From an uncultured delta proteobacterium (lineage in GTDB: Bacteria; Desulfobacterota; Desulfomonilia; Desulfomonilales; Desulfomonilaceae): DNA of 64,000 bases. The translations under genes and the position numbers were made by a program. Under the pieces are notes generated by a model. The model had not been told where the DNA came from. It did no database searches and saw only the letters and a list, made by a program, of their open reading frames with translations. Location: assembly GCA_963789265.1 (NCBI GenBank), contig CAWBKB010000004.1:192001-256000 (forward strand), in the 5' to 3' direction. Of this stretch, positions 18,937 through 25,433 are shown in pieces. The first letter of the stretch is position 1; every line of letters begins with the position of its first letter.

Positions 18937-19932
18937 TCACTTGGCCGTGGAAACAAGCTGATTCATGTGATCCCCGTCCCGAATCATCCGGACCTCCTTG
19001 AACCCCGCGTGCTCCAAATCGTCCCTGACCTCTGCGAATGTGTATGCAGTGCCTGCCGTAGTTGCTGCCAACATATTTACCGCGAACATAGCGCCGTCCG
19101 GGGGAGAAATGCGGGTGGAGTTCAGAAAGTAGTCCCTGATGAGTATAGAGCCGCCCGGTGCCAAGGCTTCATGAATTTTAGCGAAAAGCTCCCGATTAAC
19201 ATCTCGGCCGTTGCTGTGAATGATTGCGGACAACAATACGAGGTCATGGCCTTTCGGCAATTCATCGACGGTGTAGTCTCCCGCCACTACCTGAACCCGG
19301 TCAGTGAGACCGTTTTCAGCGATGCGCTTCCGTGCCATCTCCACGACGCCGGGAAGATCGAACACGGTGGCGGTCATGTGCGGAGCTCTCTCCAGAAACG
19401 CCATTGTGTAGGTCCCGGACGCTCCGCCGACGTCCAGCATTCGCGTGAAAGGTTTCAGATCGACTGACGCGGCAATTTCTTTAGCCATCTTTAGACCGAT
19501 GAAGTGCATCGCGCCGATAAAGGCTTTCATGTCTTCGCCGGGTTGAGACAAGATGTCTTTGCGATTCGGATTACTGCCCGTCTTAACGATCTCGGTGAGA
19601 TGTGACCATGTCTCCCACATGGTTCCTCTATGCAGGACCATAGGGAGTATGGAATCCTTCCCACCTTTGACCAATAAGCCCTGAATGGACGGATTCACGC
19701 TGTAGTGACCGTCGGGTGAACGGTTCAAGATTCCCTGGGCTGCCAGGGCATCCATTAATATCGTCAGTCCGCGAAGGCTCCAGCCCTGCTCCCTGCACAG
19801 CTCGCCCGCGGTCCGAGGCCGTTCTTCCAGCTTAGTAAAGAGGTCGAGCTGGGCCGCGGTCAAAAGTATTCTACATTCTTGAAATGAGCTGGTGACTTCG
19901 TGAAGTCTTCGCTCGTTCCACTGATCGGACAT
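18937..19932 (-). CDS. O-methyltransferase (dimerisation plus Methyltransf_2 domains)
   Basis: AAQLDLF, MLDVGGASG, VFDLP and VAGDY motifs. Confidence 0.88.
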   Translation of the reverse strand: MSDQWNERRLHEVTSSFQECRILLTAAQLDLFTKLEERPRTAGELCREQGWSLRGLTILMDALAAQGILNRSPDGHYSVNPSIQGLLVKGGKDSILPMVLHRGTMWETWSHLTEIVKTGSNPNRKDILSQPGEDMKAFIGAMHFIGLKMAKEIAASVDLKPFTRMLDVGGASGTYTMAFLERAPHMTATVFDLPGVVEMARKRIAENGLTDRVQVVAGDYTVDELPKGHDLVLLSAIIHSNGRDVNRELFAKIHEALAPGGSILIRDYFLNSTRISPPDGAMFAVNMLAATTAGTAYTFAEVRDDLEHAGFKEVRMIRDGDHMNQLVSTAK

Positions 19933-20372
19933 CTTGATTCACCTCCTGGGGAGAACGAATGTTGAGTATTCGATTTCCTGAATTCGGCCTCTTGTTTCAG
20001 ACAATGTCGTTTGTGCTTGCAATCCTATCCTACGCCGTCACCTCGGACTCAGATCCGGGGTCCAGTCTGTCCAGCGTCGCGCGGGACCGCGTGCGCGATA
20101 ATGGTAGGTTGGAAAACCTGCCCCACGCAAGTCAGGATTCCCGCGTGCGCGAGAATGACCGCAACGGCAGCAGAATGCGCGACCGTATTTGCGCCATAGT
20201 GTAAAAGCCATGCTGCTACCTCGATCTACTATATCGAAGGAAGGCCCACGTTGATAAACGGTAAGTCTGATCTCTCAGCTCCAGACGGAAAAATGCGTAG
20301 GGGGACCATGCTTGACAACCACCCTCTTAAGTTTATTCTAAACATTATACGCTCGGTCAAAAGAGGTGCGAG

Positions 20373-20528
20373 ATGAAATGGCTTGTTGGAGGCGTCCTTG
20401 GGGCGTTGGCTGGTTTTGGCGTGTATCTGGTTGGCGTTAACCTTCAGTCCGGCTGAGCCTTGTGGTGCAACCCGGTCCTGGCCGTTATTATCGGAACCTT
20501 GATCGGTACGGCGATCTCCTCCGTGTGA
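20373..20528 (+). CDS. Putative 51-aa two-TM selenoprotein (DUF6132-like) with in-frame TGA at 20454-20456
   Basis: RBS AAGAGGTG. Reads MKWLVGGVLGALAGFGVYLVGVNLQSG-U-ALWCNPVLAVIIGTLIGTAISSV. The frame continues past TGA with a second TM helix. Confidence 0.6.
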
Positions 20529-20573
20529 GGAAGATATCACAAGATGCTTCAGCCTTACCAACTTGAGGGCAAT

Positions 20574-21713
20574 ATGGGAAAGCATCTGGTCTTTGTGGGA
20601 GGGGGCCATGCCCACTTAACGTCCTTGGTCAACATTCAGGACTACATCAATTTGGGGCATAAGGTTTCCCTCATAAGTCCTGTAACACATCATTACTACT
20701 CCGGCATGGGCCCCGGACTCCTCTCAGGAATTTACCGTCCGGAAGAGGTCCGATTTCATATCAAGAAACTTGTCGAAGATCAAGGGGCTGCCTTTGTGAG
20801 AGGTTACGTTGTCCGCGTCGACGCGGATAGACGCTTGCTGATTTTGGACTCGGGCGATGAAATTCCTTACGATGTAGCCTCTTTCAACACGGGAAGCTCA
20901 GTCCCGCTGGATGGAATCAATGATAACCCGAAGAAAGTCTATCCTGTCAAACCTATAGTCAACCTGCTCAAGGCAAGAAAAGTAATACTGGACAAGATCC
21001 GCACGGGTGTACCACGTCTGTTGGTGATCGGCGGAGGCCCCGCTGGTGTCGAACTTTCCGGTAATGTCTGGCGCTTAATCCATGACAACGGAGGCCGAGC
21101 TGAAATATCCCTTGCTTCCGGCGGAAATCTCCTGTCTTCCTTTCCGGAGAGAGTGCGCAACCTGGCCCTTTCCTCTTTAGAGGAACGGCGCATCGAAGTG
21201 GTGGAGGGGGCGCAAATCAGCCGATTTGCAGACGGGGAAGCTGTGCTGGCAGACGGTAGGCGTATCCCTTACGATGTGGCGTTTGCCGCTTTGGGGGTGA
21301 AGCCTTCGGGAATATTCGCGGAATCCGGTCTACCGTCAGGCCATGATGGCGGCCTACTGGTGAATTCACGCCTCCAAAGCGTTGCGTACCCGGAGATCTT
21401 CGGAGGCGGCGACTGTGTTTCTCTCCAGGGATCGACTCTAGATAAGGTCGGCGTCTATGCGGTACGGCAAAACCCGGTGCTTCACCAGAACCTCGTAGCG
21501 ACCCTCTCCGGCAAGCCTTTAGAAACGTTCACGCCTCAGCGATTCTACCTCCTAATTTTCAATCTTGGCGACGGCACGGGTATTTTTGTGAGAAAATCAT
21601 GGGTGTGGAGCGGCAGGCTTGCTTTCCGGTTCAAGGATTACCTGGATCGCTCTTTTATGCGGAAGTTTCAGGTTTCCGGAGAACGGGAGGATCATTCTGA
21701 AGTGTTGGACTGA
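20574..21713 (+). CDS. FAD-dependent pyridine nucleotide-disulfide oxidoreductase resembling the N-terminal domain of long SelD fusions
   Basis: HLVFVGGGHAH, YSGMGPG, IGGGPAGVE, KVGVYAVRQ and FKDYLDRSFMRKF. Confidence 0.8.
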   Translation: MGKHLVFVGGGHAHLTSLVNIQDYINLGHKVSLISPVTHHYYSGMGPGLLSGIYRPEEVRFHIKKLVEDQGAAFVRGYVVRVDADRRLLILDSGDEIPYDVASFNTGSSVPLDGINDNPKKVYPVKPIVNLLKARKVILDKIRTGVPRLLVIGGGPAGVELSGNVWRLIHDNGGRAEISLASGGNLLSSFPERVRNLALSSLEERRIEVVEGAQISRFADGEAVLADGRRIPYDVAFAALGVKPSGIFAESGLPSGHDGGLLVNSRLQSVAYPEIFGGGDCVSLQGSTLDKVGVYAVRQNPVLHQNLVATLSGKPLETFTPQRFYLLIFNLGDGTGIFVRKSWVWSGRLAFRFKDYLDRSFMRKFQVSGEREDHSEVLD

Positions 21714-21946
21714 AGGCGGCGGCCGCATGCGGTCGGTGCACGGGACCTTCCAGTCCAACAAAGGCACTATAGCGGTTCTCAAAGGTAATCGCGGAAAAAG
21801 AAGACGGCTTGGTGGCGACGGGCATCTTGCCCGTCATTCCCAATAGACAGGCTGGAAGCCTGTCCCACCAATTCAAATAAGTTGCGACACGCATCGTGTG
21901 TGACGACAATACTTTTGAGAATTACTGTAGACACAGGATCAAGCAA

Positions 21947-23101
21947 ATGGAAAGACCGGTTTATCTCGATTACAACGGCACTACGCCTCATGACCCTGAA
22001 GTCGTAGAAGCGATGAAGCTTTTTTTGGATGAGGAGTTCGGTAACCCGTCCAGTACCCACTGGTACGGTATTGCCCCCAAAAGAGCCATAATTCAAGCGA
22101 GAAGGCAAGTAGCATCGATTTTGAATTGCGATCCCGAAGAAATCATTTTCACGAGCGGCGGAACTGAATCAAATAATAACGCAATACTTGGTATTGCCTT
22201 TGAAAATCGACACAAAGGGAACCATATCATTACCAGTCTGATCGAGCATCCCGCGGTGCTCGAAGTCTGCCGCTTTTTGGAAGAAAGAGGCTTCAGGACA
22301 ACGTACGTGCCGGTCGATGAATTCGGCATGGTAACCGTTTCCGATGTTGAGGAAGCCATCACCCCTCAGACCATTCTGATCACTATAATGCACGCAAACA
22401 ACGAAGTGGGAACCACCCAGCCTGTCGAAGAGATTGCTTCACTCGCTCGGAGCCACGGCATAGTGATGCACACCGATGCAGCCCAATCAATAGGTAAGAT
22501 ACCTACGGACGTGCAAGCGTTGGGAGTCGATCTGCTGTCCGTGGCAGGCCACAAATTGTACGCTCCCAAAGGGATCGGAGCGCTCTACATTCGCCACGGA
22601 ATACGGCTCCAAAAGTTTATGCTGGGAGCGGGCCAGGAGATGGGGAAAAGAGCCGGCACCGAAAATGTGCTCGAAATCGTCGGGCTTGCTAAGGCATGTG
22701 AGATCGCGCTGCGCGATTTAGAAAAGAACACGGACCGTATGAAGCACACCAGAGACATGCTTCACGATAGTCTGAAAGCGAGACTTGAGCATATAAGACT
22801 CAACGGACATCCTGAAAGACGTCTGCCGAATACCCTCAATTTGTCTTTTCTCGGCCTCGAAGCCAACAGAATTTTGGAAGAGATCGGATTGGAAGTAGCA
22901 GCCTCTGCGGGAGCAGCCTGCCATTCAGACCAGGTGCAGATTTCGCATGTGCTCGAAGCAATGAGCGTGCCGATTGACTGGGCCAAGGGGACGCTGCGGT
23001 TCACCACCGGTAGAATGACGACTGAAACAGAGATTGCTCGGGCTGCGAACGTTATTGTCGATGCGGTAACGAGGTTGCGAGAGCACGCTGACGAGCGGTG
23101 A
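21947..23101 (+). CDS. Group I (NifS/IscS-type) cysteine desulfurase or selenocysteine lyase
   Basis: YLDYNGTTP, FGNPSS, FTSGGTESNN, EHPAV, HTDAAQ, AGHKLYAPKG and SAGAACHS. Confidence 0.9.
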   Translation: MERPVYLDYNGTTPHDPEVVEAMKLFLDEEFGNPSSTHWYGIAPKRAIIQARRQVASILNCDPEEIIFTSGGTESNNNAILGIAFENRHKGNHIITSLIEHPAVLEVCRFLEERGFRTTYVPVDEFGMVTVSDVEEAITPQTILITIMHANNEVGTTQPVEEIASLARSHGIVMHTDAAQSIGKIPTDVQALGVDLLSVAGHKLYAPKGIGALYIRHGIRLQKFMLGAGQEMGKRAGTENVLEIVGLAKACEIALRDLEKNTDRMKHTRDMLHDSLKARLEHIRLNGHPERRLPNTLNLSFLGLEANRILEEIGLEVAASAGAACHSDQVQISHVLEAMSVPIDWAKGTLRFTTGRMTTETEIARAANVIVDAVTRLREHADER

Positions 23102-23144: not shown

Positions 23145-25433
23145 TCACGCGATTCCTTGTTTCGAGTACTTTTCCAAGATGTTAATCATTTGAGGGTACC
23201 TACGCTCGCTAGCTATCGAAAACGGTGTCCTTCCATTCGCATCAGCTACGTCGGTGGATGCTCCCCAAGCAAGCAGCATTTCCACCACGTCCGCTTGGGA
23301 TTTGTCGCATGCCCAGATGAGGGCTGTACTGCCATCATGATCCGCGGCTTCGAGATCCGGTCCGGTAGCAAGGACAAGTTTCACAACCTCGGTCCGGCCA
23401 CTAATGCAGGCCCAGATCAAGGCTGTGCGTCCGCTTTTGTCCTGGGCGTCTATAGCGACGTCGTGGTCCAGCAAGGTTTCCACGATTTCCGGGGTTCCAT
23501 AGAGCGCGGCCCACATAAATACTGTTCTCCCGGCATTGTCGTGAATGTTGACGTTCGCTCCGTGAGTTAGCAGAAGCTTGGCAACCTCCTCGCGATTTCG
23601 ATAACATGCCCACATCAAAGCGGTCCTCCCAGCCTTGTCTTTGGCGTTGAGGTCGACAACAGCCGGCAGCAGATGCTCTACATCTTCCAGACTACCCGCT
23701 ATGCACGCCTCTATGAGCACTTCGGCATCTATTTCGACCTCCCCATTCTCGTCCAACACGATCGAAGAAGTGGAGGCGACCCCGGGTGCGGATTCCTCTA
23801 TATCGGCACTCAAGTTCGCGTCTGCGATCTGCGGCGGAAAATCCACTTTGGCACCCGCATCTGTGAGCAGGCGGACCACATGCCAGTGGCTTTTTGTCGA
23901 CGCCCAGTCCACAGCAGTAAGTCCAGCCGCATCTTTCATCTCAACATCAGCTCCGTGGTCCAGGAGAAATTCCACCACTTCGCTCAGCCCTTTGTAAGAG
24001 GCTCTCATTAAAGCAGTGAGCCCATGCTTGTTTGCAGCGTTAATCTGCGCGCCATGTTCCAGCAGGATTCGCGCAACCTCTGTTTGCCCAACGGAGCAGG
24101 CTTTCATCAGAGCGGTCTTCCCTGCATTGTCCTGCATTTCCACACTGGCGCCGCGTTGCAGCAGGAGTTGCACGATTTCCGCGTGACCTTTGTATGCGGC
24201 CCTCATAAGAGGCGTAAGACCATATTTGTTTCCGGCGTTGACATTTGCTCCTAAGTCCAGTAGCCGCTGCACTGCGTCAATCAGCCCGGAACCCGCAGCA
24301 TCAATCAAATCTTTATTTCCGTATTTGGAGAGTGCTTCCACGAGGAATCCGCGCTCCAGAGTCAGTTCCAGAGTGTCGGTATCACCTCCGTCCGGGGCCT
24401 CCAACATCGCCTCAATAGTCTTTTCGGCTTCCGATGTGATAGCTGCCCCTCTCTCCAAGAGAAGTTCAACCACCTCGCCGTGCGATTCCTGGGAGGCCCA
24501 AACCAGAGCGGTCATGCCGGCCTTGTCTCCAATGTCAAAATCAGCTCCACGGTCCAACAAGAGGTTTACCACTGAGATACGGCCGACCCGAGCACCCCAC
24601 ATGAGGGCGGTGCGTCCTGCTTTGTCCTGGCGATTGATTTCGACACCCGTGTCCAGAAGAGATTTCACAACGGCCAAATGGCCTCTATCCGAGGCCACCA
24701 TGAGAGGGGTCCATCCTGCATTGTCTTCGATGTCGGGATCGGCCCCCTTTTCAAGCAGGAGTTCGACTATTTCAAGAAAGCCTCTGTGAGCCGCTTTCGC
24801 GAGAGCGGTTCTCCCGGCCTTGTCAACTGCATTCACGTCTAGTCTATGCTTGAAAAGCAAGTTCATCATGCCAACATGGCGATCGAACGCCGCCATCATC
24901 AGAGGGCTTCTGCCGGCATCGTCTTTCGCGTTGGGATTCGCCCCTTTGTCCAAAAGTCTCGCGACTATGATTGGGCGGCCGGCTGTCAAGGCAACCATAA
25001 GAGCGGTCTTGCCATCTGAAGTCCGAGCCTCTACGTTGGCACCGGCGTTCAGGAGTATGCCGAACAATTCCAGGTGTCCATAATATACGGCAGCCATCAG
25101 AGGGGTGTACCCTTGATTGTCCTGGCCTTCAAGGTCAGCGCCCAGTCCTAAGAGGACCCGGGCTGCCATTGTTTGGCCTGTAATGCAAGCCGCCATCAAG
25201 GCCGTGCACCCTTTTTCGTCTTTTGCATTCACATTGGGCTTCCGTTCAAGAAGTTCCTTGACTACCCGATAATGACCGCCGTACATGGCCTTCATCAAGG
25301 GTGTAGCGCCGGATACGTCCCGCGAGTCGACGCTCACACCTTTTGCCAAAAGGTGTCGCACTTGATCGGGCTGATTCTTTTGGACAGCCTCAAACAGTGC
25401 TCTGCTTTTGTCTCGTACAAAAAGCATCGCCAT
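23145..25433 (-). CDS. Ankyrin-repeat protein (762 aa, about 18-20 repeats)
   Basis: Repeated G-x-T-[AP]-L-M-x-A...V-x-x-LL-x-x-GA-D-V-N units separated by two acidic linkers. Confidence 0.95.
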   Translation of the reverse strand: MAMLFVRDKSRALFEAVQKNQPDQVRHLLAKGVSVDSRDVSGATPLMKAMYGGHYRVVKELLERKPNVNAKDEKGCTALMAACITGQTMAARVLLGLGADLEGQDNQGYTPLMAAVYYGHLELFGILLNAGANVEARTSDGKTALMVALTAGRPIIVARLLDKGANPNAKDDAGRSPLMMAAFDRHVGMMNLLFKHRLDVNAVDKAGRTALAKAAHRGFLEIVELLLEKGADPDIEDNAGWTPLMVASDRGHLAVVKSLLDTGVEINRQDKAGRTALMWGARVGRISVVNLLLDRGADFDIGDKAGMTALVWASQESHGEVVELLLERGAAITSEAEKTIEAMLEAPDGGDTDTLELTLERGFLVEALSKYGNKDLIDAAGSGLIDAVQRLLDLGANVNAGNKYGLTPLMRAAYKGHAEIVQLLLQRGASVEMQDNAGKTALMKACSVGQTEVARILLEHGAQINAANKHGLTALMRASYKGLSEVVEFLLDHGADVEMKDAAGLTAVDWASTKSHWHVVRLLTDAGAKVDFPPQIADANLSADIEESAPGVASTSSIVLDENGEVEIDAEVLIEACIAGSLEDVEHLLPAVVDLNAKDKAGRTALMWACYRNREEVAKLLLTHGANVNIHDNAGRTVFMWAALYGTPEIVETLLDHDVAIDAQDKSGRTALIWACISGRTEVVKLVLATGPDLEAADHDGSTALIWACDKSQADVVEMLLAWGASTDVADANGRTPFSIASERRYPQMINILEKYSKQGIA

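Follow-up and report, generated by a model that had tools for sequence, protein, structure and literature searches.

This DNA encodes a very small membrane protein that is in all probability a selenoprotein. Its 51-codon gene is predicted to specify two transmembrane helices and carries an internal, in-frame TGA that would be read as selenocysteine (Sec); from sequence comparison, we put the probability of this reading at roughly 0.9. The gene lies in a window of 64,000 nucleotides (the whole stretch of DNA that was analysed). It starts at an ATG at 20373 and runs through 27 codons to the in-frame TGA at 20454-20456, then through 23 sense codons to a TGA stop at 20526-20528. The gene and its upstream signals are as follows:

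20373-20528, plus strand: gene of the putative two-helix membrane selenoprotein, 51 codons, stop codon inside the coordinates.
20454-20456, plus strand: candidate Sec codon UGA, residue 28; a TGA column in the family, Cys in homologues.
20362-20368, plus strand: ribosome-binding site AGAGGTG, its GAGG core ending 6 nt 5′ of the ATG.
20312-20339, plus strand: promoter-like (sigma-70-like) site, TTGACA and TATTCT separated by a 16-nt spacer, ending 34 nt before the start codon.

The sequence-only reading had described a ribosome-binding site, a helix, an in-frame TGA at 20454 and 23 further codons forming a second helix. Both the sequence and an AlphaFold2 model agree with that description. The model, built from a 61-row alignment (mean pLDDT 82.8), contains a helix at residues 2-24, a loop at 25-33 and a second helix at 34-50, and places U28 and C32 within the inter-helix loop. 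The motif G-U-x-[LI]-W-C-N-P is invariant in the window's family. At the seven loci from the genus, the 25 nt upstream of the gene, including the AGAGGTG motif, are preserved. The promoter-like site was identified by its match to the consensus, with 2 such sites found against 0.5 expected in shuffled sequence. A base-calling error, with TGG or TGC as the true codon, would have to recur in 100+ genomes that have TGA here. TGA is likewise present in a contig from a public sequencing run, which covers 20300-20473 with zero differing letters, although this match is not independent because the run may be the source sample. No RNA sequencing runs are listed as containing the stretch. The gene had also been said to escape ORF calling, and public databases bear this out: the protein with U replaced by C has no homologue (0 matches) in a set of 5.8 billion proteins, and public gene calls stop at the UGA, which makes the family invisible to standard gene calling.

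The TGA is conserved at the same column wherever the family was found in close relatives. A six-frame search of 41 related genomes recovered the gene in 19 of them (13 genera) as 20 hits, and all 20 contain exactly one TGA, at the same column, with identity ranging from 98% down to 43%. The gene occurs in 18 of the 24 genomes from the same family and in 0 of the 16 from the sister family. A profile search of a phylum-wide sample (401 genomes) gave 36 matches in 35 genomes. The 33 strongest contain a single TGA; the three weakest are short and partial, and one of them has TAA. We also scanned 185,579 species genomes with a DNA pattern derived from the invariant columns, permitting TGA, TGC or TGT at its first codon. 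The scan returned 105 places, of which 100 are family members carrying TGA, one (L155, with TGC) is a true Cys form, and four are chance matches without membrane-like character. Members of the window's subtype (G-U-x-[LI]-W-C-N-P) come from records titled Desulfomonilaceae, Desulfomonile or Desulfomonilales. The S-S-U-A-L-T-C-N-P-Y and S-T-U-G-L-T-C-N-P-Y subtypes come mostly from records titled Syntrophaceae, Thermodesulfobacteriota or delta proteobacterium. A few Sec forms are from records titled Sumerlaeota (2), Wallbacteria, Poribacteria, Acidobacteriota and Fischerbacteria. All carriers from the scan with titled records are metagenome-assembled genomes. One genome (G020) has two family copies (loci L027 and L032), and the ORF of the second extends 15 codons beyond the usual end.

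Homologues with Cys in place of the TGA, which the sequence-only reading had named as a check, do exist. The family profile matched 23 of 1.84 billion representative proteins. The top match, P0003, is 971 aa long with 15 matched stretches, and we take it as a glycine-rich repeat match. Two others, P0018 and P0024, are gene calls whose last codon immediately precedes the TGA. The 20 full-length or longer homologues have Cys at the Sec column in all but one case (19 Cys; Trp in P0008), and the column is at least 90% Cys in the homologue alignment. These Cys-containing proteins (among P0004-P0025), together with L155, provide the Cys/TGA alignment that is expected of a selenoprotein family.

Codon evolution indicates purifying selection upstream as well as downstream of the TGA. 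Close pairs (97, at 80-99% nucleotide identity) have a dN/dS of 0.19 for the upstream part and 0.23 for the downstream part, compared with 0.81 in a +1 frame control, in which the part downstream of the TGA is read out of frame. Variation is concentrated at third codon positions, and the frame and length of the 23 downstream codons are preserved in 93 of 101 sequences. These observations bear on the alternative that translation ends at 20454, yielding a 27-residue single-helix micropeptide followed by an RNA element that regulates or stabilises the next gene. The public calls that end at the TGA (P0018 and P0024) would fit such a peptide, as would the two strongly conserved RNA hairpins downstream and the lower synonymous divergence after the TGA (pS 0.265, against 0.411 before it). 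Nonetheless, the preserved frame and length, the third-position bias and the dN/dS contrast with the control all argue for translation of the downstream codons. Moreover, the Cys homologues are one continuous protein with Cys at the column, and the invariant W-C-N-P is a protein motif common to DUF6132 forms. We therefore consider the micropeptide highly improbable.

The RNA downstream of the UGA contains two conserved hairpins, the second of which spans the stop codon:

20472-20506, plus strand: hairpin 1, candidate SECIS by position; MFE -13.3 kcal/mol, z-score -1.64.
20472-20477 with 20501-20506, plus strand: basal stem of hairpin 1, CCGGUC / GAUCGG.
20480-20484 with 20492-20494 and 20497-20498, plus strand: upper stem of hairpin 1.
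Around 20485-20491, plus strand: apical loop of hairpin 1.
20514-20535, plus strand: hairpin 2, across the stop codon; MFE -7.7 kcal/mol.
20514-20521 and 20522-20526, plus strand: 5′ arm AUCUCCUC and loop CGUGU of hairpin 2.
20527-20535, plus strand: 3′ arm of hairpin 2, with GAGG at 20527-20530, a bulged A at 20531 and AGAU at 20532-20535.

Neither of these is the small hairpin, CCGGTCCTGG (20472-20481), that the sequence-only reading had compared to the fdhF apical loop. That structure can form only two G-C pairs and is unconserved among relatives; we rejected it as a SECIS, and its CCGGUC pairs instead with GAUCGG at 20501-20506. Hairpins 1 and 2 were tested as structures that we had named ourselves, with slid-partner and shuffle controls. 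In the window's family, 86% of the cells of hairpin 1 are paired, against 17-46% with slid partners, and four pairs show compensatory change. In the other subfamilies, the corresponding helix begins 11 nt past the UGA, is 91.7% paired (27-46% when slid) and has five compensatory pairs, with a covariation score reached by 0 of 500 shuffles. Its apical loop is unconserved between subfamilies. Across 101 sequences, hairpin 2 is paired in 91.3% of cells (24-63% when slid), with 87 cells changed on both sides, and its covariation score was likewise reached by 0 of 500 shuffles. The pair at columns 68-74, which includes the second base of the stop codon, is never broken: 60 sequences have U-A, 40 have C-G and 1 has U-G. 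The identity of the stop (UAA or UGA) covaries perfectly with the codon two positions earlier, and the pairing of the stop-codon base in hairpin 2 accounts for the constant TGA stop of the window's family and the nearly constant TAA elsewhere. Hairpin 2 is also retained in the 8 of 101 sequences whose ORF extends past it. Its loop reads N-G-[G/U]-N-U across all subfamilies, where the G (column 70) was fixed by the scan pattern but is also invariant in two alignments independent of that pattern. Two general searches gave a different picture: RNAalifold on the 20-sequence alignment returned five scattered pairs and missed both hairpins, and a permissive Rfam search of 20300-20600 returned two chance-level eukaryotic matches and no SECIS family.

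We propose that one or both hairpins (20472-20506 and 20514-20535) would direct Sec insertion. As published (PMC13188914), the bacterial SECIS model has a loop of 3-9 nt with a G within the first two nucleotides, a stem of 4-16 bp, a distance of 16-37 nt from the UGA, an MFE at or below -7.5 kcal/mol and the SelB-binding loop pattern N-G-[G/U]-N-N. Neither hairpin meets every rule of this model. Hairpin 1 has a spacing of 28 nt, and its loop begins with G-U only when the closing pair is open. The loop of hairpin 2 (C-G-U-G-U) fits the SelB-binding consensus; this hairpin starts 60 nt after the UGA, for a model spacing of 65 nt. As in genes with a SECIS inside the ORF (e.g., E. coli fdhF), the UGA here is internal to the ORF, Cys homologues exist, stem-loops follow in the coding region and the genome encodes SelA, SelB, SelD and tRNA-Sec. 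Two differences stand out: there are two conserved hairpins rather than one, and the hairpin with the consensus loop begins 60 nt past the UGA and takes in the stop codon. It is possible, if doubtful, that hairpin 2 recruits SelB while hairpin 1 acts as a structural spacer, forming a natural bipartite, distal bacterial SECIS. Hairpin 1 would then fold away ∼40 nt and bring hairpin 2 to the ribosome. Such a distal element would explain why the loop of hairpin 2 is kept in all subfamilies and that of hairpin 1 is not, as well as the stop-codon covariation and the persistence of hairpin 2 in the 8 of 101 longer ORFs. The stop-codon hairpin may also offer a natural test of the maximal distance at which a bacterial SECIS can act from its UGA. 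In 2005, Su et al. reportedly described a 3′-UTR SECIS working in E. coli, a report that we do not use as evidence.

Many of the T-C-N-P-Y loci also have tandem repeats directly 3′ of the gene, with locus-specific units of ∼6-8 nt. At L072, L074, L075, L085, L095, L130 and L136, these short repeats lie within the 50-60 nt that follow the stop-codon hairpin.

The genome encodes the machinery that would be needed to read the UGA at 20454 as Sec, namely a SelA/SelB/SelD/tRNA-Sec system. The presence of this system had been proposed as a further check, and all parts were found: selA (594 bits), selB (386 bits), selD (360 bits) and a tRNA-Sec with anticodon TCA. The selD gene (G000:C7:193442-194362, locus L001) itself contains one in-frame TGA, by which the genome's selenophosphate synthetase is also a selenoprotein. 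Across the phylum sample, selA is present in 33 of the 35 peptide-positive genomes (the remaining two, 99% and 79% complete, have selB), a co-occurrence that is consistent with Sec decoding but non-discriminating because selA is found in 371 of the 401 genomes. The least credible alternative is that a near-cognate tRNA inserts Trp or Cys at the UGA, or that the organism gives UGA some other reading, with no Sec involved. The Trp of homologue P0008 at this column favours it. Against it, this very gene ends in an ordinary TGA stop in the window's family, the genome has a complete Sec system, and conserved hairpins follow the UGA, one of them having a SelB-type loop; the strict conservation of TGA (not TGG or TGY) over 100+ genomes also argues for a codon-specific meaning.

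The family is best read as a divergent branch of the DUF6132 superfamily with a U-x3-C-N-P signature. The sequence-only reading had likened the protein to DUF6132-type proteins, with the TGA at the second Cys position. That likeness is essentially correct, although the window's own protein falls below the Pfam threshold. Six of the 20 homologues scanned exceed the gathering cut-off of Pfam DUF6132 (PF19628; 23.2 bits), with scores of 24.7-50.9 bits. The window's protein has no DUF6132 match in Pfam at E up to 0.01, 2 of 20 family members match the model at E = 4, and a search of the window's genome with the model at E up to 10 did not match the locus. In a protein-atlas search, the natural Cys homologue P0010 returned DUF6132 clusters at 0.87-0.88, which we treat as a lead only. 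Run over the 401 phylum genomes, the DUF6132 model found 12 places in 10 genomes, all above the cut-off. All 12 of these canonical genes read C-x4-U, with a TGA at the second Cys of C-x4-C. Both groups share a length of ∼50-70 residues, a glycine-zipper helix, a Cys/Sec loop, [NS]-P and a second helix. Furthermore, canonical members from the phylum read G-S-T-U-G-L-T, as does one subfamily here. This shared motif, together with the six Cys homologues that pass the DUF6132 cut-off, leads us to place the family in the superfamily as a divergent branch.

The two groups differ both in their Cys residues and in their RNA. The upstream Cys of C-x4-C/U is absent from the family described here, which instead has an invariant Cys four residues after Sec. 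In the canonical Sec-DUF6132 genes that were folded (5 of 12), the UGA is followed at ∼19 nt by a classical hairpin whose loop reads U-G-G-U-C-A, whereas this branch has a long hairpin plus a second one at the stop codon. The neighbours of the 12 canonical loci have no common theme; they include TPR, ribonucleotide reductase and CGGC-domain proteins (the last twice) and FMN reductase once. One canonical gene, L177 (G091:C30:8270-8419), has an open frame with two TGAs, of which the first, near the N-terminus, could precede the true start or could encode a second Sec. The U-x3-C spacing of the family recurs in TsoA (NF045695, LULAxC motif), according to the motif list in a 2026 review; the NF045695 model matches 0 of 20 family members at E up to 10.

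The selenoprotein family appears so far uncatalogued, judged by the table of that review, the BSepDB supplement and NCBIfam. The review's table of 119 prokaryotic selenoprotein families includes neither DUF6132 nor a comparable tiny two-helix membrane protein. A keyword search of the BSepDB supplement found no DUF6132, PF19628 or membrane-protein entry, and a full-text literature search for DUF6132 or PF19628 returned no true match. No NCBIfam model matches the family, and the window's protein has no significant match in Pfam or NCBIfam (release 20). The family would add very small membrane proteins to a bacterial selenoproteome that otherwise consists mostly of soluble thioredoxin-fold enzymes.

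Three genes flank the peptide gene in the window:

20574-21713, plus strand: flavoprotein disulfide-reductase-family gene (Pyr_redox_2, 90.7 bits; TIGR03169, 262.5 bits).
21896-23101, plus strand: NifS/IscS-type cysteine desulfurase gene (Aminotran_5, 254 bits; TIGR03402, 472.7 bits).
18937-19932, minus strand: O-methyltransferase gene (Methyltransf_2 plus dimerisation domain), divergent from the peptide gene.

The reductase gene has a conserved start at 20574 (20544 in the ORF list), 45 nt after the peptide gene, and the two are likely in the same operon. The downstream genes had been described as selenium-associated types, a description that holds in part. The best NCBIfam match of the reductase is indeed TIGR03169 (Nterm_to_SelD) and the second gene is NifS-type; however, both scores fall under the family cut-offs (262.5 bits against 310 for the reductase; 472.7 bits against 530.75 for the desulfurase). 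The desulfurase is beside the peptide in the window's genus only, and the reductase is 3′ of it in the genus plus one distant lineage (L120, at 54% identity). The O-methyltransferase, whose best NCBIfam match is BchU, far below cut-off, is the only neighbour conserved across the window's family. It is found at 17 of 20 loci, always divergent, and, counting the W-type loci with at least 4 kb of sequence, at 19 of 24.

Beyond the window's family, several redox genes recur. A thioredoxin gene is directly upstream on the same strand at 8 loci of one family and at 10 in the wider set. Rubrerythrin (9 loci), cytochrome bd subunit I (8), Fe/Mn SOD (7) and FMN reductase (6-7) are also found repeatedly nearby, as are DUF2231 (13 loci), a GalT-like HIT protein (18), MFS genes that precede the peptide gene (13) and ABC exporters that follow it (10). 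The neighbourhoods are heterogeneous: of the 67 loci with at least 4 kb of sequence, only 28 have thioredoxin, rubrerythrin, SOD, cytochrome bd, FMN reductase or the reductase within 2.5 kb (23/41, 5/24 and 0/2 by subtype), counts that overstate independence because the genomes are related.

This family would give DUF6132, whose function is unknown, a chemical handle: a position occupied by Cys or Sec only, paired with a second Cys. Positions of this kind are normally redox or soft-metal sites. We lean tentatively, at somewhat short of even odds, towards a redox centre at the membrane surface that is reduced by a thioredoxin-type system. The Sec/Cys pair would cycle between selenol/thiol and selenenylsulfide, and may be kept reduced by thioredoxin in some lineages or by the adjacent flavoprotein disulfide reductase in this genus. 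In support of a redox role, the reductase family is directly downstream in two distant lineages, and the Cys homologue P0019 runs into the start of a thioredoxin domain (20.8 bits, under cut-off). The family is common in Desulfomonilaceae and Syntrophales-type anaerobes, often beside oxygen-defence genes, and may therefore help strict anaerobes protect their membranes; its role would be defence against oxygen or oxidants at the membrane. Two observations do not fit the redox reading. First, the homologues carry positive charge in both their N- and C-terminal tails, which by the positive-inside rule would place the Sec loop on the outer face and away from thioredoxin in the cytoplasm. Second, the O-methyltransferase partner is unexplained.

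The main rival to a redox role is metal or selenium handling, which we consider unlikely. Here, the Sec/Cys pair would bind a soft metal or chalcogen (Hg, Cu, Cd, As or Se) and move it through the membrane or along it. In this genus, selenium might be handed on in this way to the SelD-associated-type reductase and the NifS-like lyase. Two-helix mercury importers with Cys pairs are known (MerF and MerE), and MerT is another small mercury importer with Cys pairs. In keeping with such a role, the gene precedes the TIGR03169-like reductase and the NifS-like enzyme in the genus, ABC exporter-type genes follow in 10 loci and MFS genes precede in 13, and MerT is faintly matched (E 0.027) by the Cys homologue P0020. 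The published list also includes a mercuric-transport-like selenoprotein family. Against these points, the MerT model (PF02411) matches none of 20 family members at E up to 10, the annotated clusters contain no mer, ars or cop regulators or reductases, and the selenium-type neighbours score under their family cut-offs, with the desulfurase limited to one genus.

Several other features of the neighbourhoods deserve mention. In one subfamily, baeRF_family10 aeRF1-like genes (a cluster of 5 loci, among them L082, L085, L095 and L096) lie within 2.5 kb; as release-factor homologues, these are curious neighbours for a UGA-recoding gene. In the window, an 81-codon ORF at 19959-20204 (plus strand) has no family match and no counterpart in related loci, and is probably not a gene. 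Further downstream, 23145-25433 (minus strand) encodes a protein of 762 residues that consists almost wholly of ankyrin repeats (Ank_2, 636 bits, 14 stretches), a size unusual for a bacterium.
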